The translations under genes were made by a program, and so were the position numbers. Source: Candidatus Collierbacteria bacterium GW2011_GWC2_44_18 (GTDB lineage Bacteria > Patescibacteriota > Microgenomatia > UBA1400 > MFAQ01). Taken from it: a stretch of 64,000 bases of DNA. The notes under the pieces were generated by a model. The model ran no database searches. It had not been told where the DNA came from and saw only the letters and a program-made list of their open reading frames with translations. This document shows positions 3,447 through 53,341 of this stretch, in pieces (the stretch's first letter is position 1; each line of letters opens with the position of its first letter). The stretch lies in contig LCIE01000002.1 in NCBI GenBank assembly GCA_001000865.1, positions 32,992-96,991 of the forward strand. The letters are read 5' to 3'.

Positions 3447-5546
3447 TTGGCTGTCGAGATTCATGAGTCACTGATCAAAACTGCCCTGTGGGAGATTCTT
3501 GAAGGCCAGCCGGAAATTATAAATGTTGGTTCATACGAATCGTGGACCGACGAAGAATCCCTTATCAACGGAGTCGATTCATCTTTGGATCAAGCAATCA
3601 AGGTTATCAAAGGCCAGCCCAAAAGAGTCATCTTTGGTTTGCCTGATTCCTGGATGGAGCTGGACAAAATTCATGCCACCAAAACTAAATTAATTACCCA
3701 TCTCTGCAAAGAACTGGGCCTCGATCCGATTGGGGTGGTTACCACCAACCGTGCTGTTGCCCACTACCTCAAAAAGAGGGAGGGCATGCCGCCGACTGTT
3801 GTTCTTCTTGAAGTCTATACTTCCAAGGTTGCCGTTTCCTATGTCTACCTTGGCGAAGTCAAGCAAACTGAAGAAGCCGCCCGGTCCGGAGACCTAGCCC
3901 ACGATGTCGAAGAGGGCTTAACCAGAATGGACCTGCCCAATTACCCTGCCAGATTTATTCTAACTAACGGTAACAGTCTAGAAGAGGAGTCCCAGCAAAT
4001 CACGGCTTTTCCCTGGACAGACAGACTACCCTTTAAGCACATTCCCAAAGTCGAGGTCCTTCCAATTGATTTTTCTATCAAAGCTATTGCTTTGACGGGC
4101 GGGGTCGAAGCCGTTCAGTTTTTGGGTCTTGAGGTTACCGAAGATAAAACTGTCGTCAAATCATCTGATGACGATTCCAATTTGGTTATCCCGGTCGAAA
4201 CCCCCTCTACCATGGAAGAGCTGGGTTTTGCCTACGAAGAAACTTCTGCCCCAGCCACAATTCCCATGGCTCCAACGACACTAGAAGTTGTCTCCGACGA
4301 CGGTTCTTCCCCAGAGACGTCCAACGACGAACCAGAGTTTGCCTTTTCTGGTGATGAGGCTGACCTTTCTCCAACGAAAAAACCCCATCTTAATTTTGTT
4401 CTTCCAGTTCTTCCTCGTTTCAAATCTCTCCACTTTCCCCATTTAAATTATCTTTTTTTGTTTACAGTTCCTGTCATCCTCGTTCTCGGTTTCCTCGCCT
4501 ACCTCTTTTTTGGTCAAGCTCAGCTCACGATCCATTTTGATCCGCAAAAAATAAATAAACAGTTGGGAATAGCCATTGCCGAAACTACTCTACCGGGAAT
4601 TCCTACTCTAATTGCTTCCAAGAAGACCTTTACCGGTTCCGCGCAAGAATCAATCTCCACAACCGGCACGGCTACTGTCGGTGATAAAGCCACTGGTACG
4701 ATCACCATTGCGAACAAAACGACAGTGCCAATCATTTTAAAATCAGGATCTACAGTAAAAAATGATACAGGTAAATACACATTTGTTCTGCAGGACGATG
4801 TCACTATTGCTTCTGCCAGCGCACTTGATAACACGAAAGCTGCGGGTGTCAAAGTTACCGCTGTGAAAATCGGCGCTGAATATAATTTACTTAAAGGAAC
4901 TGTTTTCAGTGTTGGTGACTATCTCAAATCAGTCGCGGCCGCCGTTTCCGAAGCAGATTTTGCCGGTGGTACCTCTCGCACTGTAAACGCCGTTTCCAAA
5001 GACGACCAGGATAAACTTTTGTCCATCGCCACCGAAAAAATAAAAACCAAGGTTCAAGGTGATTCGCAAGCGGCCAATCCGGGATTCAAAACTTTGCCTT
5101 TTTCCGATATTCAATTTACCAAAAAGCAGTTCGACCACAACCTTTCCGAAGAGGCCGCGACAGTGAGTTTAATTTTGGAAGGTTCTCTTGATGCCCTTGT
5201 TTACTCCGAGGATAGTCTCTACAACCTAGCCATAGGGGAGATCCAAAGCCAAATCCCAGCAGGTTCATTTACCAAAAAGGAAACAACTACTGTGAGCCTA
5301 GACAATCCCGCCAAGACCGATGGTCGGTACCAATCAAAAGTTACCATCGAGACCACTCTTTATCCGCAAATAGATGAGCAAAAAATGGCCGAATTTGTTA
5401 AAGGAAAACTCGTTTCCGGTATTCGCCACTTTTTTGAACCCATTCCCGGCTTTACCGGTCTGGATATAAAAATATTTCCTCCAATTCCTTTAATTACCAA
5501 GATTCTGCCGTTTCGAAACATTACTTTCGACCTGGTTAGCAATTGA
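3447..5546 (+). CDS. bitopic membrane protein (699 aa): N-terminal cytoplasmic PilM/FtsA-like segment, acidic linker, one TM helix, beta-rich extracytoplasmic domain
   Basis: TTG start per ORF track. Central TM helix LFLFTVPVILVLGFLAYLFFG. N-terminal region has weak PilM/FtsA-like character (VIFGLPDSWMELDKI...ELGLDPIGVVTTNRAVAHYL). ATGA overlap with the downstream sortase gene. Confidence 0.55.
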   Translation: MAVEIHESLIKTALWEILEGQPEIINVGSYESWTDEESLINGVDSSLDQAIKVIKGQPKRVIFGLPDSWMELDKIHATKTKLITHLCKELGLDPIGVVTTNRAVAHYLKKREGMPPTVVLLEVYTSKVAVSYVYLGEVKQTEEAARSGDLAHDVEEGLTRMDLPNYPARFILTNGNSLEEESQQITAFPWTDRLPFKHIPKVEVLPIDFSIKAIALTGGVEAVQFLGLEVTEDKTVVKSSDDDSNLVIPVETPSTMEELGFAYEETSAPATIPMAPTTLEVVSDDGSSPETSNDEPEFAFSGDEADLSPTKKPHLNFVLPVLPRFKSLHFPHLNYLFLFTVPVILVLGFLAYLFFGQAQLTIHFDPQKINKQLGIAIAETTLPGIPTLIASKKTFTGSAQESISTTGTATVGDKATGTITIANKTTVPIILKSGSTVKNDTGKYTFVLQDDVTIASASALDNTKAAGVKVTAVKIGAEYNLLKGTVFSVGDYLKSVAAAVSEADFAGGTSRTVNAVSKDDQDKLLSIATEKIKTKVQGDSQAANPGFKTLPFSDIQFTKKQFDHNLSEEAATVSLILEGSLDALVYSEDSLYNLAIGEIQSQIPAGSFTKKETTTVSLDNPAKTDGRYQSKVTIETTLYPQIDEQKMAEFVKGKLVSGIRHFFEPIPGFTGLDIKIFPPIPLITKILPFRNITFDLVSN

Positions 5547-6310
5547 TAATGTTATACAGCTATCGCAAGGCCACTCTGGATAACCCTCATCCTGGCAGGC
5601 GTATCCCCCATTACTTAAAGACCCTTCCGACTTTAGTGTCTGCCCTGGGGTTGGGGATTCTCGCTGGCGTTGCTTATCCCGTAGTCAGTTATCAGTTCAA
5701 AGACATAAAACTATTTAGTTCTTCTGATTCCGGTTTACTTTCCCCGGCTTATTACCAATCAAAAGCGGAAAATAGTTCTTCCCCCGTAATCATCAACGGT
5801 TTGGATTACACAAAAGCCAGTAACTGGTTCCCGGGAAGCATTCAAAACGAATTTTTTTCTGTCCCGACAACAGTTACAGAAGTTACAGATAATTCTCCGG
5901 ATTCATACACTCTTTCTATACCCTCACTCGGAATCATAAATGCCCAAGTCGCCATCCGAGACGAAGACCTAACCAAGCATTTGGTGCAGTACCCCCAGAC
6001 GGCTCTTCCCGGCCAAATTGGTTCTCCGGTCATCTTCGGCCATTCCACTCTGCCCCAGTTCTTTGATCCCAAAAAATATACCACAATCTTTTCTACTCTA
6101 CCAAAGGTTAAAGTTGGCTCCGATATTTTTATTACTTATGACGGCATAGAGTATACCTATCGCATCACCAAGACATTTGAGGTCAAACCAAATGAGTTGT
6201 GGGTTCTCAGGCAGGATTACTCGGACAAAAACCTCAAAGTCATTACTTGTGTCCCTCCAGGTACCACCCTACGCCGCCTCGTGGTCGAAGGTACTCTTAT
6301 CAACAACTAA
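5543..6310 (+). CDS. sortase family transpeptidase
   Basis: N-terminal TM helix. Catalytic His context PVIFGHSTLP and catalytic Cys context LKVITCVPPGTT (TLxTC-like). Sortase-sized at 255 aa. Confidence 0.75.
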   Translation: MIMLYSYRKATLDNPHPGRRIPHYLKTLPTLVSALGLGILAGVAYPVVSYQFKDIKLFSSSDSGLLSPAYYQSKAENSSSPVIINGLDYTKASNWFPGSIQNEFFSVPTTVTEVTDNSPDSYTLSIPSLGIINAQVAIRDEDLTKHLVQYPQTALPGQIGSPVIFGHSTLPQFFDPKKYTTIFSTLPKVKVGSDIFITYDGIEYTYRITKTFEVKPNELWVLRQDYSDKNLKVITCVPPGTTLRRLVVEGTLINN

Positions 6311-46271: not shown

Positions 46272-49200
46272 TTGACATCTCCTTACCCTGTAATTAAACT
46301 AAAATCATCGATGGGAAAAATAAAAACCTTCTTAGGTTCTTTGCGTCCTTGGCAGTTGGTCGGAATCTTGCTGGTTTCCTTAGGACTGCTCGCTTCCGTT
46401 ATTCTTGCTTCGCAATACCTTCAGCTCTCAGCCAAACTAAAGCTAGGCTCAGACGCCGGGCTGTTGTTGACGGCGGATCGACAAGACTCGTTAGGGACGT
46501 TTCAGGATTCAACTTTCACTCTCAAGTCGGATCAAGATCTTACCGTCGCCGGTCTCAAGAATAGTGTGACTTTCTTTCCCGAAATAGACTTCGACATTAG
46601 GGAAATCAGCCCTCGTCAATTTAGTATTTCCCCCAAGGCTCCTCTAAAGAACAACAGTCTGTATCGCGTCAAGGTAGTTTCCGACCAAAAAACTTTTTCC
46701 TGGGCATTCCAGACCAAAAACGATTTCCGGGTAGTCCAAACCCTACCTCGTGATCAAGCCACCTACGTACCCATAAATTCTGGTATCGAGATCACCTTTA
46801 GTCACGATAATTGGGATGACATAAGTTTGAAAGATGGAAATTTTGAAATTACCCCTTTTGCCGAAGGTCGTTTCGAACGTCACAAAAGAACTATTTCCTT
46901 TATTCCAGAGGGACTTGTTCCAAATACACTATATACGGTAAAAATCAAAAAAGGTCTTAAACTCAAAGGAACCAATGAAGTTCTCAAAGATGATTTTGTT
47001 TATCGTTTTGAAACCCAGTCTTCTTCCGGAGATAAGACTCAAATAAATTTTTCCAGAAGTTTTTATGAATTTTCTCCACCCGAAACTCCGGCTTTCGATA
47101 TCTACACTTCATCGACCGGCGTGGGCGAGGCCTCGGTAAAGGTTTATCAATACCCCAATGTTCAAGATTTTACTTCCGACTTTACTACCAAGCTGGCTAT
47201 TCCGGCGTGGGCGACCAATTCACTTCGCTTAAATCGTCGTCCGGTTTCGGGGCTAAACAAAGTTCTGGATTTTCCGGCATCAATTCAAAAACAATCATAC
47301 ACCAATTATTTCTTACTTCCTCAAACTTTACCCAAAGGTTTTTACCTGATTGAAGCCACGATCGATAATATCACCACCCAAGCTTTGGTTCAAATAACCG
47401 ACCTCTCCGCCTATCTCACCGTCAGCGGTACCAAGACACTCGTTTGGGTCAACGATATTGGTACTGGCCAGCCTGTTTCTGGTGCAAGTGTCAGTTTCGC
47501 CGGCAAAGGACAAGAAACCGGTCAGGATGGTGTCGCTTACTTTGATACTCCGACCGAAAAGATAACAGAAAATTCCAATCTTATTGGAGTTAGTCATGGC
47601 AGTAATGCTCTATATTTACCTGTTCAAAATGTTAGGTACTACTACGATGCTGATTATCAAAATTCCCGTCGCGTGGCCGATAAATACTGGAACTATTTTT
47701 ACACCGATCGTCCGGTCTACCTACCCACTGACATTCTCAAGTTCTGGGGTTTACTTAGGGATCGGGACAATCTAAATCAAAATCAAAAATTCACCTTAGA
47801 AGTTACTCGGTCAGATTACACCAGCTGGGACTTCCATCCGATGGTGCTTTTTACCAAAGATTTCGAAACCAGTGATCTGGGAACTTTTATTGGCGACATT
47901 CCTTTGGCGAGCTACAATCCGGGCTGGTATGGTATCTCCCTTAAGATCAATGGCACTATCGTCTCCAGTTCTTCGTTTTCGATTGAAACTTACACCAAGC
48001 CAGCCTACAAACTTACCCTCACTCCTTCCAAAAAAGCCGCTATTGTCGGTGAAATAATCTCTTTTTCCGGTGAAGCTACCTTCTTCGAAGGCTCCCCAGT
48101 CGTGGGGATGGATTTAAAGGTTACCGGGGCTCAAAATAGTAATTTCACCACTGATTCTCTCGGTCGATTTAATTTCAATTACCTGGTCTCGAAAAATTCC
48201 TACAACTATTTACCGGAGTATCGAAATTTTGTTGTCCTTCCCACCCTTCCCGAGGAGGGTATGATTCAAGTGAATTCCTCTATTGCCGTTTTTGATTCAT
48301 CACTAGTCTTGGGTTATTCAAAAACTGAGTCAAAAAATTCCACTGGAAAGGTTGAGATCGATCTTCGTCAGGTTGATACCGGAAAATTTACTCAGTCTTC
48401 AGACATACAAGACATTTTTGCTCCGGCTTCAAACCGGCTGGTTACTGGCACCTTAGTGGAAAATCAATGGAATCGACGGGAAGTTGGTACCTATTACGAT
48501 TTTATTAACAAGGTAACCTCTCCCAAATATGCATACGATCGAGTTCAAACCAAAATTGCCGACATCTCTTTAACCACCGACTCAAAAGGGAAGGCGGTCT
48601 ACGAATTTCCTGTTGGAGAAAACAAGTCATACGACATTCTCTTATATGCCACTGACGATCAAGGAAGAACTACCAGCCAAAACGTTTATCTTACCGGCTC
48701 GGTCAACAATGCCGAGTTGAATAACTATGTTTATTTAAAAACCGACAAGGAGGGTCAAAATTCCAGCCGATATGCTATTGGCGAGTCAGTAAACCTCACC
48801 CTTATGCGAGGAGAATTACCTCTGGAGTCCTCCGGAAACGATAAATTTCTTTATTTATTTTCTCAAAGGGGCCTTAATTCGTATCAGTTAGCCAGCGATG
48901 GGAAAATAAGTTTCAAATATCCCACAGCCTTTGTACCCAATGTCTTTGTTCGGGCGGTGAGATTTACCGGGAAAACTTATCAAGTATCGGAAAATCTTTA
49001 TCTATACTTTGATACCACCTCCAAAAAACTTTCCCTGGGGATTACTCAAGATAAACCCTCATACCTTCCGGGAGATACCGCCAAACTTTCCGTACTGGTA
49101 AAAGATCAAACCGGATCCGGCGTCTCTTCAGAGGTCAATCTCAGTCTTACAGATGAAGCATACAACGCTTTAAATTCCACTTTTGTGGATCCGTTATCTG

Positions 49201-51530
49201 GAATCTATCGTTCCTTGGGCGACGATATTATTGCTTCATACCAATCTCATCAATATCCTCTGGATAGTTCCGGGGCTGAAGGTGGTGGTTGTTTCTTGGC
49301 GGGTACACAGATATTGATGGAAGACGGAAAAACAAAAGAAATTCAGGATATAAAGGTGGGAGATATAGTCAAGTCATTTCTAAGTCCTCTGTCGAGGAAA
49401 ATAGCAACTGCCAAAGTTTCCAAAGTTTTCACGCATCAGGTAGTAGGTTATTTGGTAATTAACAATCACCTAAGAGTCACCGGAGAACACAATTTATATA
49501 TCAATGGTCGGTTCATGACCGCCTCTGAGGTAAAAGTTGGGGATTTCTATCTTGATACTCATGGGGAGTACCAAAAGATATTCTCCATCGAAAGTCGATC
49601 TGGAATAAATACGGTCTACAATTTCACGGTAGAAAAATTAAACACATACTTCGCCGAAGGATTTTATGTCCACAACGAGAAGGGTCGCGAATTATTCGTG
49701 GACAATGCTTTTTTCAGCAGTGTCCGTACCGGTAGTGATGGCCGTGCCAGCGTTGATGTTAAGCTTCCGGATAATCTTACCTCTTGGAAAATTACCTCCC
49801 AAGGAGTTACTGCCGATCTGAAAGCAGGTGTCGACTCTTCTCTTCTGGTTGTTAAACAACCCTTCTTCGTAGATGTAGTCATGAACACTGAGTATCTGGT
49901 TGGCGAACGACCGGAAGTTTCGGTTCGTGCCTATGGTGAAGGACTATCCACTGGGGACCAAGTAATCCTAAAAATTCAATCTGATACTTTAGGAATAGAT
50001 AAAAGTCTTAACATAAAAGCCTTTGAAAGTTCTAAAGTGGATCTTGGTGTCCTCAAAGAAGGCTCCCACAAAATTACCATTTCGGGTATTTCCGGTAGTC
50101 TTACGGATAAGTTAATCAGAAAAATGAATGTAGTCAAGTCTCGCCTCAAAGCAGTCAAATCGGTCAGTGTTTCTTTGGCAGAAGGTACCAAGCCGGAAGG
50201 TTCGCCAGATTCGTCAACGACCTTAATCTTTTCCGACCAAAGCCTCGGTCGTTATTTCCCACCCCTTTCAAACCTGGCTTACACTTGGGGGGATCGCTCA
50301 GATCAGCGTCTAGCCCGCCATCTTTCGCAGTCTATCATCAAGAAGCTTTTCGACGATTCTATCAGTCCGGAAACACTCGACCTCACCGCCTTTCAAACTC
50401 CGGATGGTGGTTATGCACTCTTTCCCTACTCTGGAGCAGACCTGGAGCTCTCTGCCTTCGTAGCGTCCTTGGCAAAAGAAAAGGTTGATCTCATTGGTTT
50501 GGGAAACTATTTTTACAAAGAATTTTCCCAATCAAAAGACCTCGACACTGCCTCCATGTCGCTTTTTGGACTGGCAAGTTTAGACGAACCGGTACTACTA
50601 TTAATAAACAATCTTTCGGGCGAAAAAGATCTCAGCCCCTTGTCCAGAATCTACTTGGCTTTGGCTCAAGCCAAGATCGGGGATACCGAAATGGCCCGCA
50701 TTTTCTACAAGACTCTCATGTCGGAGTTTTCCGAAAAACAAGATTCATTAATCTTGATGAAAGTCGGATCAGACAAAGATAGTTATCTCCAGGCCACTTC
50801 ACTTACTTCTGCTCTTTCCTCCTTGTTGGGTGAGCCGGAAGCTGACAGTCTGCTTTCTTACACCCTGGCTAATAGCGCGAAAGACATCTTACTAGTTGCT
50901 CCTCAGATGATGGCCATTTCCTATCAGATCGAAAATATTAAACCCCAACCGGTCTCTTTTTCATACACTCTAAATGGCAAAAAGATACCCAAAAAACTTG
51001 AAAAGGGTCAAGTTTTCAAGCTTGAGTTATCGTCCACTGATCTATCCGGAATAAGTTTTTCCGATCTTGTTGGCAATGTCGGTTTGTCTTCAACTTTCGC
51101 GGTTCCTCTGGATCCAAAAACTGCCCCCATAAGTTCGTCGGTTCAGTTAGGTCGGAGTTACTCTGTTCGTGGTGCTATCACCAACACTTTCTCCACCAGC
51201 GATCTTGTCAAAATTTCACTTCCAGTTGCCTATGCGGATATCTCTCAAGACGGTTGTTACCAAGTCTCGGATCTACTTCCTTCGGGGTTGAGACCGATCA
51301 CTTCGATTTATAGTTTCGGGCTGGATTCCACAAAGACTTGGTATCCATACGAGATAAATGGCCAAAAGGTTAGTTTCTGTGTAGGAAATGGAAGTAAAGA
51401 AAAAACCATCAACTACTATGCGAGGGTCGTCTCCGGTGGCGACTTCAAAGCCGAAAGTGCCTTGATTCAATCCTTAATTTCACCTTCAGTCTTCAACCTT
51501 TCTCCCTCCGGCTCGGTCATTATCAAATGA
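46272..51530 (+). CDS. alpha-2-macroglobulin-family surface protein (1752 aa), thioester-less, with a Hint/BIL domain in place of the bait region
   Basis: N-terminal signal-anchor helix and repeated MG-type beta-sandwich domains (e.g. LVQITDLSAYLTVSGTKTLVWVNDIGTGQPVSGASV). The post-bait A2M block FVDNAFFSSVRTGSDGRASVDVKLPDNLTSWKI...LVVKQPFFVDVVMNTEYLVGE aligns with human A2M [32 protein letters not shown]...[21 protein letters not shown] (recalled from memory). No CxEQ thioester at the expected position (LAYTWGDRSDQ instead). Confidence 0.7.
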   Translation: MTSPYPVIKLKSSMGKIKTFLGSLRPWQLVGILLVSLGLLASVILASQYLQLSAKLKLGSDAGLLLTADRQDSLGTFQDSTFTLKSDQDLTVAGLKNSVTFFPEIDFDIREISPRQFSISPKAPLKNNSLYRVKVVSDQKTFSWAFQTKNDFRVVQTLPRDQATYVPINSGIEITFSHDNWDDISLKDGNFEITPFAEGRFERHKRTISFIPEGLVPNTLYTVKIKKGLKLKGTNEVLKDDFVYRFETQSSSGDKTQINFSRSFYEFSPPETPAFDIYTSSTGVGEASVKVYQYPNVQDFTSDFTTKLAIPAWATNSLRLNRRPVSGLNKVLDFPASIQKQSYTNYFLLPQTLPKGFYLIEATIDNITTQALVQITDLSAYLTVSGTKTLVWVNDIGTGQPVSGASVSFAGKGQETGQDGVAYFDTPTEKITENSNLIGVSHGSNALYLPVQNVRYYYDADYQNSRRVADKYWNYFYTDRPVYLPTDILKFWGLLRDRDNLNQNQKFTLEVTRSDYTSWDFHPMVLFTKDFETSDLGTFIGDIPLASYNPGWYGISLKINGTIVSSSSFSIETYTKPAYKLTLTPSKKAAIVGEIISFSGEATFFEGSPVVGMDLKVTGAQNSNFTTDSLGRFNFNYLVSKNSYNYLPEYRNFVVLPTLPEEGMIQVNSSIAVFDSSLVLGYSKTESKNSTGKVEIDLRQVDTGKFTQSSDIQDIFAPASNRLVTGTLVENQWNRREVGTYYDFINKVTSPKYAYDRVQTKIADISLTTDSKGKAVYEFPVGENKSYDILLYATDDQGRTTSQNVYLTGSVNNAELNNYVYLKTDKEGQNSSRYAIGESVNLTLMRGELPLESSGNDKFLYLFSQRGLNSYQLASDGKISFKYPTAFVPNVFVRAVRFTGKTYQVSENLYLYFDTTSKKLSLGITQDKPSYLPGDTAKLSVLVKDQTGSGVSSEVNLSLTDEAYNALNSTFVDPLSGIYRSLGDDIIASYQSHQYPLDSSGAEGGGCFLAGTQILMEDGKTKEIQDIKVGDIVKSFLSPLSRKIATAKVSKVFTHQVVGYLVINNHLRVTGEHNLYINGRFMTASEVKVGDFYLDTHGEYQKIFSIESRSGINTVYNFTVEKLNTYFAEGFYVHNEKGRELFVDNAFFSSVRTGSDGRASVDVKLPDNLTSWKITSQGVTADLKAGVDSSLLVVKQPFFVDVVMNTEYLVGERPEVSVRAYGEGLSTGDQVILKIQSDTLGIDKSLNIKAFESSKVDLGVLKEGSHKITISGISGSLTDKLIRKMNVVKSRLKAVKSVSVSLAEGTKPEGSPDSSTTLIFSDQSLGRYFPPLSNLAYTWGDRSDQRLARHLSQSIIKKLFDDSISPETLDLTAFQTPDGGYALFPYSGADLELSAFVASLAKEKVDLIGLGNYFYKEFSQSKDLDTASMSLFGLASLDEPVLLLINNLSGEKDLSPLSRIYLALAQAKIGDTEMARIFYKTLMSEFSEKQDSLILMKVGSDKDSYLQATSLTSALSSLLGEPEADSLLSYTLANSAKDILLVAPQMMAISYQIENIKPQPVSFSYTLNGKKIPKKLEKGQVFKLELSSTDLSGISFSDLVGNVGLSSTFAVPLDPKTAPISSSVQLGRSYSVRGAITNTFSTSDLVKISLPVAYADISQDGCYQVSDLLPSGLRPITSIYSFGLDSTKTWYPYEINGQKVSFCVGNGSKEKTINYYARVVSGGDFKAESALIQSLISPSVFNLSPSGSVIIK
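49290..49676 (+). other. Hint (bacterial intein-like, BIL-type) domain embedded in the A2M-family protein
   Basis: Begins GGG-CFLAGTQILMEDGK (block A). Has the TxxH block B (RVTGEHNL). Ends NTVYNFTVEKLNTYFAEGFYVHN (blocks F/G). The residue after the terminal Asn is Glu, not Cys/Ser/Thr. About 129 aa with no homing endonuclease. Confidence 0.75.
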
Positions 51531-53341
51531 AACTCTGGCAGTTATTTATTGGTTTTCTACCGATTATCGTCATTGCGACCTGCCTGCCGGCAGGCAGGGT
51601 TTTACTCGAACCGAAGCAATCTCCGAGCTTGAACCCTACACCTATTCGTGGGGTTAACCAACCCTTTGACACCTCCTTCGCTTATGATAATCGCACTTTT
51701 CTACCTGCCGTCGCTCAAAATACTGGCGTTGGTAACGGAACCTCTCCTAGGGTGGTTGTTCTCCCTCATCACCTGACCGCTTCTACCCTGATTGCTCAAG
51801 GCTTGTCGCTTTTAAAAACACCTCCACCCAAAACTATTGTTCTTTTATCTCCCAATCATGCCAACACCGGACAGTGCGCTATAGTTTCCTCCAAAAATAA
51901 TTGGGATACCCCATTTGGTCAGGTCCTAGTCGATCAATATCTATTGAATGATTTTCTGGACACCAAAACCATCTGTTTGGATGACTCGGCTGTGGCTATA
52001 GAACATGGTCTTGCCGGATTGGTTCCCTTCATCAAATATTATCTCCCGAATACAAAAATTGTTCCTTTTGCCCTTAAAAATGACCTCGATCCAATATTGT
52101 TAAATAATTTTACTCAAAAATTAGTTTCACTTTCTACAAAAACCGTTATCTTAGGCTCAATAGACTTTTCCCATGGTCTGTCCAAAAGTGAATCGACCAA
52201 AAAAGACGCTGTCACCGAGAAGTTACTATTGACCTTTAACTATCCGGAACTTCTCAAACTTTCATCCGAGTATCTCGACTCTCCGGTTTCTTTGGTCGCC
52301 ATTCTCAAAATTCTAGACTCGGAAAAAACCAAACCGAACATTCTAGCCCACAGTGACTCATCGGTTTTCAATAACCAACCAATGAACGTCACTTCATATT
52401 TTTTGATCTCCGGCGGCAGTAGTTCATCATCGACCATTCGTCATCCCGGACTTGATAGGGCCGTTGGTCCCCGAAGGGGGAGATCCATCCCCTCTGGAAA
52501 TTCCTTCACTCTCCTCTTCGGCGGTGACGTCATGCTTGGTCGCTCCGTCAATACCAGAATGATAAAGTACCAAGATTTCTTATGGCCATTCCAAAAAATA
52601 TCAGCTCTTCTTTCTTCTGCGGACTTATCTATTATCAATCTCGAGTCGCCTTTCCGTTCTGGTTGCCGACCGACCGATGGTGGTATGGTTTTTTGCGCCG
52701 ATCCTCGATCAGTCGAAGGTTTGGTTACGGCCGGCATCGATGTTGTTAATATCGCCAATAATCACATTTTCAATCAAGGCCAGGAGGGCATAGATGAAAC
52801 CATCGCCATATTAAATAATAACAACATTGCTTTCGTAGGGGCGGACCCCCGCGTCCGCCCGACAAACGACCCCCGCGTCGATCCGCAAAAATCGACATTC
52901 ACTCTCAAAAATACCAAAATCACTTTCTTGGGCTTTACCGACATTGCCTCCGTTTCCCAAGAAATTGCGACCGCCACTCCAGACAATATTAGAGCTCAAA
53001 TATCTGCCGCAAAAAAAGATTCCGATTTGGTTATCGCTACTTTCCACTGGGGCAATGAATATAGTCATCGGTCACTTCATCAGGTGGAACTCGCTCATCT
53101 AGCCGTTGATTCTGGTGCCGATGTCGTCATCGGCCACCACCCGCACTGGGTCCAGGAAGTAGAAACCTATTTGGGTAAACCCATTTACTATTCTCTGGGA
53201 AATTTAGTTTTCGATCAAATGTGGTCAGAAGAAACCAGGACAGGTCTAGTAGTCAAGTTAAACTTCTCTGGCAGTACCCTAATCAGTCAAGAACAAATTC
53301 CTATAAAAATTTTCGACTATGGTCAGCCAGCTACTCTATAA
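51527..53341 (+). CDS. fusion protein: MEMO1/AmmeMemoRadiSam-B-like domain plus CapA/PgsA-type metallophosphatase domain (604 aa), carrying three in-frame repeat insertions
   Basis: MEMO-like motifs LPHHLTAS, SPNHANTG, EHGLAGLVPFIKYY, SIDFSHG. CapA-like motifs LLFGGDVMLGRSV, NLESPF, NIANNHIFNQGQEG, TFHWGNEY, VVIGHHPHWVQE. ATGA overlap with the A2M gene stop. Repeat copies at 51568-51598, 52438-52493 and 52834-52861 are read in-frame. Confidence 0.65.
   Translation: MKLWQLFIGFLPIIVIATCLPAGRVLLEPKQSPSLNPTPIRGVNQPFDTSFAYDNRTFLPAVAQNTGVGNGTSPRVVVLPHHLTASTLIAQGLSLLKTPPPKTIVLLSPNHANTGQCAIVSSKNNWDTPFGQVLVDQYLLNDFLDTKTICLDDSAVAIEHGLAGLVPFIKYYLPNTKIVPFALKNDLDPILLNNFTQKLVSLSTKTVILGSIDFSHGLSKSESTKKDAVTEKLLLTFNYPELLKLSSEYLDSPVSLVAILKILDSEKTKPNILAHSDSSVFNNQPMNVTSYFLISGGSSSSSTIRHPGLDRAVGPRRGRSIPSGNSFTLLFGGDVMLGRSVNTRMIKYQDFLWPFQKISALLSSADLSIINLESPFRSGCRPTDGGMVFCADPRSVEGLVTAGIDVVNIANNHIFNQGQEGIDETIAILNNNNIAFVGADPRVRPTNDPRVDPQKSTFTLKNTKITFLGFTDIASVSQEIATATPDNIRAQISAAKKDSDLVIATFHWGNEYSHRSLHQVELAHLAVDSGADVVIGHHPHWVQEVETYLGKPIYYSLGNLVFDQMWSEETRTGLVVKLNFSGSTLISQEQIPIKIFDYGQPATL

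Follow-up and report, generated by a model that had tools for sequence, protein, structure and literature searches.

The window analysed here, a stretch of 64,000 nucleotides from Candidatus Collierbacteria bacterium GW2011_GWC2_44_18 (contig LCIE01000002.1), carries on its plus strand the gene for a 1739-residue protein resembling alpha-2-macroglobulin (A2M; 46311..51530, +), at whose bait position sits a 129-residue Hint domain akin to the bacterial intein-like (BIL) domains (residues 994-1122; 49290..49676, +). Gene coordinates throughout are window positions, and residues are counted from the methionine of the ATG at 46311. This ATG lies inside an open reading frame (ORF, 46272..51530) that stays open upstream to a TTG at 46272, and it is taken as the true start because homologues start MEKIK or MGKIK.

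The Hint region is recognised by its translation, by Pfam and NCBIfam, by profile comparison and by structural modelling. It is free of stop codons and reads CFLAGTQ...TGEH...FYVHN, and the opposite strand is rich in stops. The PT-HINT model of Pfam (PF07591) matches residues 1009-1122 (37.0 bits, cutoff 27.7, E 4.7e-9), weaker Hint and intein models begin at 986-1004 (Hom_end_hint from 994, Vint from 993), and NCBIfam places an intein C-terminal splicing region at 1102-1122. The residues expected of an active Hint domain are all present on the plus strand, namely Cys1 (Cys994; 49290-49292), the block B residues Thr64 (49479-49481) and His67 (49488-49490), and the terminal His128-Asn129 pair (His1121-Asn1122; 49671-49676), and a further histidine, His49 (49434-49436, +), lies outside the classical intein blocks. 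Modelled by itself the domain folds with a predicted local distance difference test (pLDDT) score of 88.8 and a pTM of 0.82, and tblastn found no second copy within the window. The presence of a Hint domain in an A2M-like protein is far beyond chance; an assembly artefact or a chance ORF was considered and is ruled out, as the arrangement is kept in >140 proteins.

Position of the Hint domain in the scaffold

Three Pfam domains above their cutoffs mark the host protein as an A2M: MG2, a macroglobulin (MG) domain (residues 462-555; 47694..47975, +; E 2.8e-9), the bait-region domain A2M_BRD (residues 818-952; 48762..49166, +; 30.7 bits, cutoff 22.7) and the A2M domain PF00207 (residues 1133-1205; 49707..49925, +; E 7.4e-11). 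The Hint domain falls between the last two, with the A2M domain starting 11 residues past it; this A2M domain contains the family-invariant PDNLTSW, and its region pairs with residues 732-806 of human A2M. An AlphaFold2 model of residues 545-1739 (window 47943-51527), built on a 45-sequence alignment with the N-terminal 544 residues left out, has a mean pLDDT of 85.8 and a pTM of 0.69 and presents an A2M-type series of MG domains. Foldseek pairs this model with Salmonella A2M (3.4e-43) and then with ECAM, A2ML1, C5, TEP1 and CD109, and the protein is a member of the A2M superfamily.

The domain is flanked on both sides by linkers that the model leaves without confident structure. The linker before it (residues 974-993, IASYQSHQYPLDSSGAEGGG; 49230..49289, +; pLDDT <50 at model residues 430-448) ends in a conserved AEGGG whose last residue, Gly993, is the -1 residue of the Hint, and the linker after it (EKGRELFV; 49677..49700, +; pLDDT <50 at model residues 579-586) provides Glu1123 at +1 and Lys1124 at +2 (49680-49682). 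The low-confidence segments thus comprise 19 residues (974-992) and 8 residues (1123-1130) around a confidently folded Hint, and the only other low-confidence parts of the model are its N-terminus and one short loop. A flexible loop between the bait-region domain and the next domain, here 974-993 and 1123-1130, is what characterises the bait region of an A2M, and at the same site the Hint-less homologues show a Gly-rich stretch 10-30 residues long.

Alignment to A2Ms of known structure leads to the same place. With phmmer the segment after the Hint aligns with human A2M (RELFVDNAFF...QPFFVDVVMN against RKYFPETWIW..., E 4e-4), and the Arg at +4 pairs with R732 of 6tav_A (1474 residues), which puts the +1 residue at human A2M 729 if the numbering of 6tav_A is that of the precursor, as we assume. 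The human bait region we take to be 690-728, following the UniProt annotation. When a 94-sequence family profile was compared with the PDB, the flank before the Hint aligned to ECAM 814-880 and C5 462-629, and the flank after it to ECAM 936-997 and residues 107-267 of the C5 alpha-chain. Ungapped extension of the C5 alignments has the Hint standing in place of about C5 652-756, which presumably corresponds to the beta/alpha processing site and C5a, an approximate equivalence. In ECAM the disordered bait is R923-L942, within a bait-region domain inside MG8 (PMC4498604), and the ECAM stretch left unaligned between the two flanks should contain it, bearing in mind that the numbering of the paper and that of the PDB entry may be offset. 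The Hint domain occupies the bait position of an A2M scaffold. An earlier note, made from the letters of the DNA and a list of ORFs, had described an A2M-family protein with MG domains and a post-bait block alignable to human A2M and with a complete Hint domain of ~129 residues (CFLAGTQ...TGEHNL...FYVHN) at the bait position, and each of these points is borne out, the domain down to its exact coordinates and with Cys1, T64-x-x-H67 and H128-N129 in place, the human alignment by phmmer, and the placement by the agreement of domain order, the human A2M, ECAM and C5 alignments and the structure prediction.

Relation to bacterial intein-like domains

For the Hint domain, the best PDB matches of the family profile are BIL2 (6y75/6tmm, E 1e-17) and a BIL domain of Clostridium thermocellum (2lwy, 5e-15), followed by a toxin Hint and by mini-inteins. 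The single-sequence alignment spans the whole domain, with Cys1 opposite the Ala1 to which the crystallised proteins were mutated and TGEH opposite their TFDH or TVNH. The fold of the Hint-only model gives the same ranking, lying nearest to 6y75/6tmm (TM 0.76-0.81; 0.78-0.81 for 6y75) and 2lwy (TMt 0.85, root-mean-square deviation 1.8 A), then to the DnaB, gp41-1 and RecA mini-inteins and then to Hedgehog. An N-terminal Cys, a TxxH motif and TM scores of 0.6-0.85 to BIL, intein and Hedgehog structures place the domain in the HINT superfamily. Within that superfamily the A-type BIL domains have Cys1, a block B TxxH and a C-terminal His-Asn and lack a nucleophile at +1 (PMC7765530; PMC7664689). 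The domain described here likewise ends in His-Asn, is followed by a non-nucleophilic +1 residue, carries no endonuclease and sits in a non-housekeeping surface protein, and by every feature of sequence and fold examined it fits an A-type BIL domain.

Three other kinds of Hint domain were considered and rejected. A canonical class 1 intein is ruled out by the +1 position, which is Glu here, never Cys in 143 relatives and Ser or Thr in only 8 of them, by the insertion site, a flexible Gly-rich loop of a surface protein, and by a length of 129 residues that is too small for an endonuclease. A Hedgehog Hog domain is ruled out by the invariant His-Asn and the missing sterol-recognition region, the A2M domain following instead. 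The PT-HINT of polymorphic toxins, although it is the best-scoring Pfam model and is likewise an autoproteolytic Hint of exported proteins (PMC3482391), is ruled out since the Hint here is internal and is followed neither by a C-terminal toxin domain nor by an immunity gene, but by 617 residues of A2M scaffold and then by a Memo/PGA_cap gene.

The two nearest structures illustrate different sides of the domain. The C. thermocellum BIL shares with it the minimal size of ~130 residues, Cys1, TxxH and His-Asn, the absence of a +1 nucleophile and of a homing endonuclease, and an extracytoplasmic, non-housekeeping host protein. Known BILs belong to the variable regions of proteins of adhesin or toxin type, whereas the present domain is confined to a single loop of defined function in a conserved scaffold and has been passed on vertically in many lineages of the Candidate Phyla Radiation (CPR). 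With BIL2, from the polyubiquitin-like BUBL1 locus of Tetrahymena thermophila and its best PDB match, it shares a nearby Lys as a potential acceptor, an N-extein ending in Gly-Gly and His49, which is present in 58 of 59 Hints and aligns with BIL2 His48. Ubiquitin-like domains, too, typically end in Gly-Gly. The differences from BIL2 are that the exteins here are macroglobulin parts, that the host is a bacterium and the protein extracellular, that an isopeptide is hypothetical, and that the second Zn ligand is not conserved; the Zn ligands of BIL2 are His48 and H125 (PMC8616854), and H125 aligns with an invariant Asn (N111) of the Hint.

Distribution and conservation

The arrangement is no isolated case: it is a conserved architecture spread over many Patescibacteria lineages. 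Searching the database gave 403 homologues, and the Hint is present in 59 of the 120 that were listed. In a MAFFT alignment it is a clean insertion in the Gly-rich linker, Hint-bearing proteins reading YP....AEGGG/C...VHN/[DEQ]KGR..F.D.A.F (slashes mark the domain boundaries) and Hint-less ones YP....AE[RG]GG-[DG]GG.R.DF.D.A.F. A junction query (residues 954-1222) matched ~360 cluster representatives (50% identity) at E<=1e-30, and most of the best 150 of these are 1700-1900 residues long and are matched in a single stretch over both flanks and the Hint. In the GTDB set, which has one genome per species, 574 loci encode relatives, and the Hint is found in 75 of the best 80 of them; these 75 represent Collier-, Uhr-, Magasanik-, Falkow-, Moran-, Kerfeld-, Doudna-, Peregrini-, Peri-, Gracili- and Saccharibacteria, and the Hint-less loci among the 80 include Chloroflexi and Dehalococcoidia. 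Titles of several metagenome-assembled genomes, such as 'uncultured Pseudomonadales', are evidently placeholders.

Junction residues were counted in the 143 A2M proteins whose Hint is complete. All of them (143/143) have Cys1, Phe2 and the His-Asn end, Gly occupies -1 in 133 and -2 in 126, and the length is exactly 129 residues in 128; Thr64 and His67 are likewise invariant in the 59 listed homologues (59/59). The +1 residue is D in 59, E in 34, Q in 22, A in 13, S in 6, N in 3, I in 2 and T in 2, and never Cys, which makes it other than Cys, Ser or Thr in 135/143. A Lys follows at +2 in 119 proteins, at +3 in 21 and at +1 in 2, that is in 142/143, and this Lys of +1 to +3 is not present in the Hint-less loops. 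It might be asked whether the domain is catalytically dead and serves only for structure or binding within the loop, or itself provides the bait. Nothing specific speaks for such a role, in which the flanking linkers would stay accessible to proteases with the Hint in place, and the invariance of the residues for the N-S acyl shift and Asn cyclisation (143/143 or 59/59) would be unexpected in a mere spacer, so that we give this explanation hardly any credence.

The nearest relatives of the domain outside A2M proteins are tandem arrays of 2 to ~8 copies joined by 'KGG(G)' linkers, in the pattern GGG/CF...VHN/KGGG/CF (P0163, P0209, P0255, P0247, P0128, P0249, P0256 and P0227). Several arrays begin after an N-terminal stretch of ~30-35 residues ending in ARGGGG, and Gly/His-rich tails follow. 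As the Lys is kept in Hint proteins, is absent from Hint-less loops and recurs in the arrays as VHN/KGGG/CF, it belongs to the Hint module, and on this pattern it probably takes part in the Hint reaction.

Evolution of the insertion

In a tree from which the Hint columns had been removed, Hint-bearing proteins form several large clades, and the p-distances of Hint and host are strongly correlated (Pearson r = 0.86, Spearman 0.58), with the Hint the more conserved of the two (0.52 against 0.62 for the host). Synonymous sites are saturated in most pairs of Collierbacteria, and the few usable pairs with measurable dS give a Hint dN/dS of ~0.08-0.1, equal to that of the downstream flank (for instance a dN of 0.077 and a dS of 0.93 for the Hints of loci L011 and L016). 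Such ratios indicate that the Hint is under purifying selection. Three Hint-less proteins, P0020, P0022 and P0033, have Hint-bearing nearest relatives at 66%, 58% and 50% identity, with a bootstrap of 0.99-1.0 for this neighbour, and in P0020 and P0022 the unit lost or gained is the Hint together with an 'xK' dipeptide, with Gly residues in its stead. Among 203 proteins the length of the bait loop is strictly bimodal, either 60-100 or 200-220 residues, and none of these proteins has a degraded or intermediate Hint. Since Hint-less homologues differ in loop length, the loop should accommodate imprecise deletions, and the lack of decayed copies in so permissive a place speaks for selection to keep the Hint whole and active; this lack is compatible also with a passenger that is obliged to splice.

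Such a selfish or neutral passenger is the main alternative to a functional role. The Hint would then be the relic of a mini-intein-like element without homing endonuclease, which removes itself by BIL-type ligation and adds no function, and the mature protein would equal the Hint-less homologues with the bait loop restored. This accommodates the polymorphic presence of the Hint among close relatives, the Hint-less forms being evidently viable, and the strong co-divergence of Hint and host, which fits vertical inheritance without homing; the all-or-none pattern and the intact catalytic residues are also what one expects of a parasite dependent on splicing. Ligation by a BIL domain without a nucleophilic +1 side chain is possible according to Aranko 2013, in the form in which that work is cited in PMC7664689. 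A neutral insertion is harder to reconcile with the complete lack of degraded or truncated copies in a Gly-rich loop of variable length, with retention over very deep CPR divergences in the absence of an endonuclease, and with a Hint more conserved than its host. A parasite under selection for clean splicing alone should, moreover, prefer Cys, Ser or Thr at +1, and the tandem arrays of close Hint relatives in other secreted proteins resemble a recruited processing module. On balance we consider the passenger an unlikely explanation, one that nevertheless deserves to be kept in mind.

The scaffold and its gene neighbourhood

The remainder of the protein agrees with a large surface-exposed A2M. 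Its sole strongly hydrophobic segment by hydropathy, at about residues 13-40 (46347..46430, +), is also found in homologues and, read as a signal anchor, would place most of the protein outside the cytoplasmic membrane. It is followed by a Big_5 bacterial Ig-like domain (residues 138-235; 46722..47015, +; Pfam, E 3e-11) and by a bMG3 match at residues 362-417 that stays under its Pfam cutoff. Beyond the A2M domain lie a helical TED-like domain (about residues 1312-1541; 50244..50933, +; helices at model residues 768-997) and, in the predicted model, a C-terminal beta-strand region (about residues 1548-1738; 50952..51527, +); the family-profile segment 1469-1756, which includes this region, aligns with the last ~300 residues of ECAM, and the profile of the TED-like region found no sequence match in the PDB. 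No CxEQ thioester motif is present in the protein or in the 120 homologues among the matches listed, as the earlier note had already remarked of the protein itself, and by sequence the protein belongs to an A2M lineage without thioester. At the start of the TED-like domain, a nearly invariant G-D-R-x-D-Q motif (GDRSDQ, residues 1327-1332; 50289-50306, +) lies roughly where GCGEQ stands in thioester A2Ms, and it might be a salt-bridge stand-in for the thioester.

The protein has three cysteines only, Cys994 of the Hint and two conserved ones that both lie in the C-terminal MG domain, Cys1649 (51255-51257) and Cys1690 (51378-51380), in the contexts DGCYQVTD and VSFCV. The pair probably forms a disulfide, which would fit an extracytoplasmic location. 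The model of residues 545-1739 fits activated forms (protease or methylamine) better than native ones, with TMq of 0.41 for ECAM 4rtd, 0.38 for 4ziq and 0.41-0.45 for active CD109, whereas native 4u48 and 5a42 give 0.26; this is weak evidence, given that target lengths differ and the N-terminal 544 residues are absent.

The gene overlaps by 4 nt at its stop with the start of a gene for a Memo-like protein fused to a PGA_cap (CapA-like) domain (51527..53341, +), whose product also has an N-terminal hydrophobic segment; RNase HII is another neighbour. A Memo-like ORF lies immediately downstream on the same strand in 53/75 related loci, with the PGA_cap part fused to it or encoded nearby, and the pair is missing at the Peregrini-, Peri- and Gracilibacteria loci among them. 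The Memo-like neighbour is found also at Hint-less loci of Chloroflexi (L076) and Dehalococcoidia (L081), which suggests that A2M-Memo(-CapA) is a surface module independent of the Hint. At the locus of a distant Hint-bearing homologue (L003, protein P0105, on a contig of 1.37 Mb), an ECF sigma-factor gene (5420-5998) lies immediately upstream of the A2M, with SLH-domain proteins nearby and no Memo/PGA_cap neighbour.

These features define the type of scaffold. A Type I bacterial A2M, represented by ECAM and Salmonella A2M, was considered and rejected, there being no CxEQ here and RNase HII and Memo/PGA_cap as neighbours instead of pbpC (PBP1c). Similarity to these two solved proteobacterial A2Ms is moreover seen only with profiles: whole-protein single-sequence phmmer found no match in the PDB, and the 94-sequence family profile was needed. 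The Type II A2Ms, MagD of Pseudomonas aeruginosa and YfaS, are alike in having a large multi-MG scaffold associated with the cytoplasmic membrane and a bait region, without CxEQ. They differ in their operon of the magABCDEF type, in place of which the conserved neighbour here is Memo-like/CapA-like, in that a Big_5 domain lies near the N-terminus here, and in that their bait loop depends on an external protease, where the present one has a domain predicted to process itself. No six-gene operon resembling mag or yfa was present in the locus gene tables inspected, and the scaffold, thioester-less as in Type II, is not a member of the MagD/YfaS type.

Discussion

We propose that the flexible bait loop of this membrane-anchored, thioester-less A2M has as its built-in processing module an A-type BIL domain that is catalytically competent and has become fixed there, a proposal that we consider to be somewhat more probable than its negation. 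In this model the 192-kDa precursor would be exported by Sec and held in the membrane by its N-terminal helix, and the Hint domain would then fold. Cys994 would attack the carbonyl of Gly993 in an N-S acyl shift to give a Gly-thioester, and Asn1122 would cyclise with the help of His1121, breaking the bond between Asn1122 and Glu1123. The 14.6-kDa Hint would depart, leaving the A2M cut at the bait into an anchored part of 110.7 kDa and a second part of 66.7 kDa. Three fates of the thioester are chemically plausible. Hydrolysis would leave a two-chain A2M whose parts are bound non-covalently, as in bait-cleaved MagD or two-chain C3; attack by the alpha-amine newly exposed on Glu1123 would produce a peptide splice; and attack by the epsilon-amine of Lys1124 would form a Gly-Lys isopeptide like that of BIL2. 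From the residues conserved, self-excision after export that processes the A2M at its bait is the most likely role of the Hint.

Each of the three outcomes has a precedent among related proteins. BIL domains yield mainly cleavage products (PMC7664689; PMC7765530), ligation without a nucleophilic side chain is credited to them in the citation of Aranko 2013 already referred to, and BIL2 joins a C-terminal Gly to the epsilon-amine of Lys (PMC8616854). Cleavage of thioester-less MagD at its bait gives fragments of 91.2 and 74.0 kDa that remain associated (PMC5764988), and the predicted 110.7 and 66.7 kDa resemble the proportions of MagD and those of protease-cleaved Salmonella A2M (102/77 kDa). 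The earlier note had called the domain BIL-type and had reasoned that with Glu at +1 it would cleave rather than splice; the first part stands, and the second is not established, given that BILs can ligate, that BIL2 makes an isopeptide and that a Lys follows the Hint in 142/143 proteins.

Several considerations weigh against this model. Conserved residues are the sole ground for the predicted activity of the Hint, and its placement at the bait is drawn from alignments and the pLDDT pattern of a model. The Hint-less relatives nested among Hint-bearing ones show that a Hint is not needed for the scaffold to function and that it may add nothing, which applies as well to the auto-triggered trap suggested in the earlier note. 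Finally, if cutting the bait sets off the irreversible collapse usual in A2Ms, constitutive self-cleavage would be wasteful. In MagD, cleavage in vivo occurs only in specific conditions, namely with MagB present (PMC5764988).

A trigger that is conditional would have the Hint stay in place as a plug of the bait loop, much like the anaphylatoxin domain of C3 and C5, and fire only when prompted, for example by a thiol or amine nucleophile, a metal, pH or contact with the host. Firing would either bring about the conformational change of an A2M without a protease or transfer the acyl group of Gly993 to a Lys of another protein, in replacement of CxEQ. BIL2 provides the model for this chemistry, in that it links its N-extein (ubiquitin-like per the paper) to other proteins' lysines independently of ATP and is activated by Zn (PMC8616854), and classical A2M thioesters also react with lysines of proteases (PMC4498604). 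The Gly-Gly end of the N-extein, the near-invariant His49 at the position of the BIL2 Zn ligand His48, and the placement of the Hint over about C5 652-756, presumably the beta/alpha processing site and C5a (approximate limits, by ungapped extrapolation), all suit such a role. The minimal 129-residue domain, on the other hand, has no sensor or ligand-binding extension, the second Zn ligand of BIL2 (H125) is replaced by the invariant Asn, the Hint-less relatives also lack a thioester, so that no Hint is needed to compensate for it, and a conserved Lys just downstream favours an acceptor within the same molecule. Conditional firing appears to us rather improbable.

A bolder reading would see in the thioester formed by the Hint the reactive centre that this A2M lineage is missing, resolved either by Lys1124, stapling the two halves together through a Gly-Lys isopeptide of the ubiquitin kind, or by a lysine of a foreign protein, such as an attacking protease or a surface protein of the host cell, tethering that protein covalently to the anchored half. 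We regard this reading as doubtful; if true, it would make a surface macroglobulin of episymbiotic CPR bacteria the seat of ATP-independent, BIL2-like conjugation.

Complement C3, C4 and C5 offer an analogy: their loop corresponding to the A2M bait likewise houses an additional globular domain and a site of maturation cleavage, the mature protein is two-chain, and removal of the anaphylatoxin (ANA) activates the molecule. The positional equivalence is an extrapolation from local alignments, and the domains are unlike: ANA is helical and is removed by external convertases, alongside furin-like processing, whereas the Hint is rich in beta-strands and is predicted to remove itself.

A literature search on A2M combined with intein, Hint or CPR found no paper describing a Hint or intein in an A2M, in keeping with the earlier note, whose author knew of none. 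A2M-like surface proteins of CPR bacteria have been noted as a possible defence against host proteases, with the Hint unmentioned (PMC8080830; PMC9793634), and public annotations label some members 'polymorphic toxin-type HINT domain-containing protein'. Databases thus display the architecture, which is apparently undescribed, and what is new is the combination of two known kinds of module, widespread and under selection. A compact domain of 129 residues that needs no +1 nucleophile may also be of use in protein engineering.

To our knowledge it is invariably a separate protease that arms the proteins of the A2M family, from bacterial ECAM to human A2M and complement, by cutting one loop. In the present protein this loop carries its own domain, predicted to cut or ligate, and this is conserved over a large share of the CPR, whose biology depends on giant surface proteins that are poorly understood. 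Should an isopeptide form, the chemistry of 'ubiquitination by splicing' known from BIL2 would extend to bacteria and to extracellular proteins. Should the Hint process itself, BIL domains would gain a defined and conserved physiological role, and this would be the first macroglobulin known to us that matures by itself into a two-chain form like that of C3, or that triggers itself.

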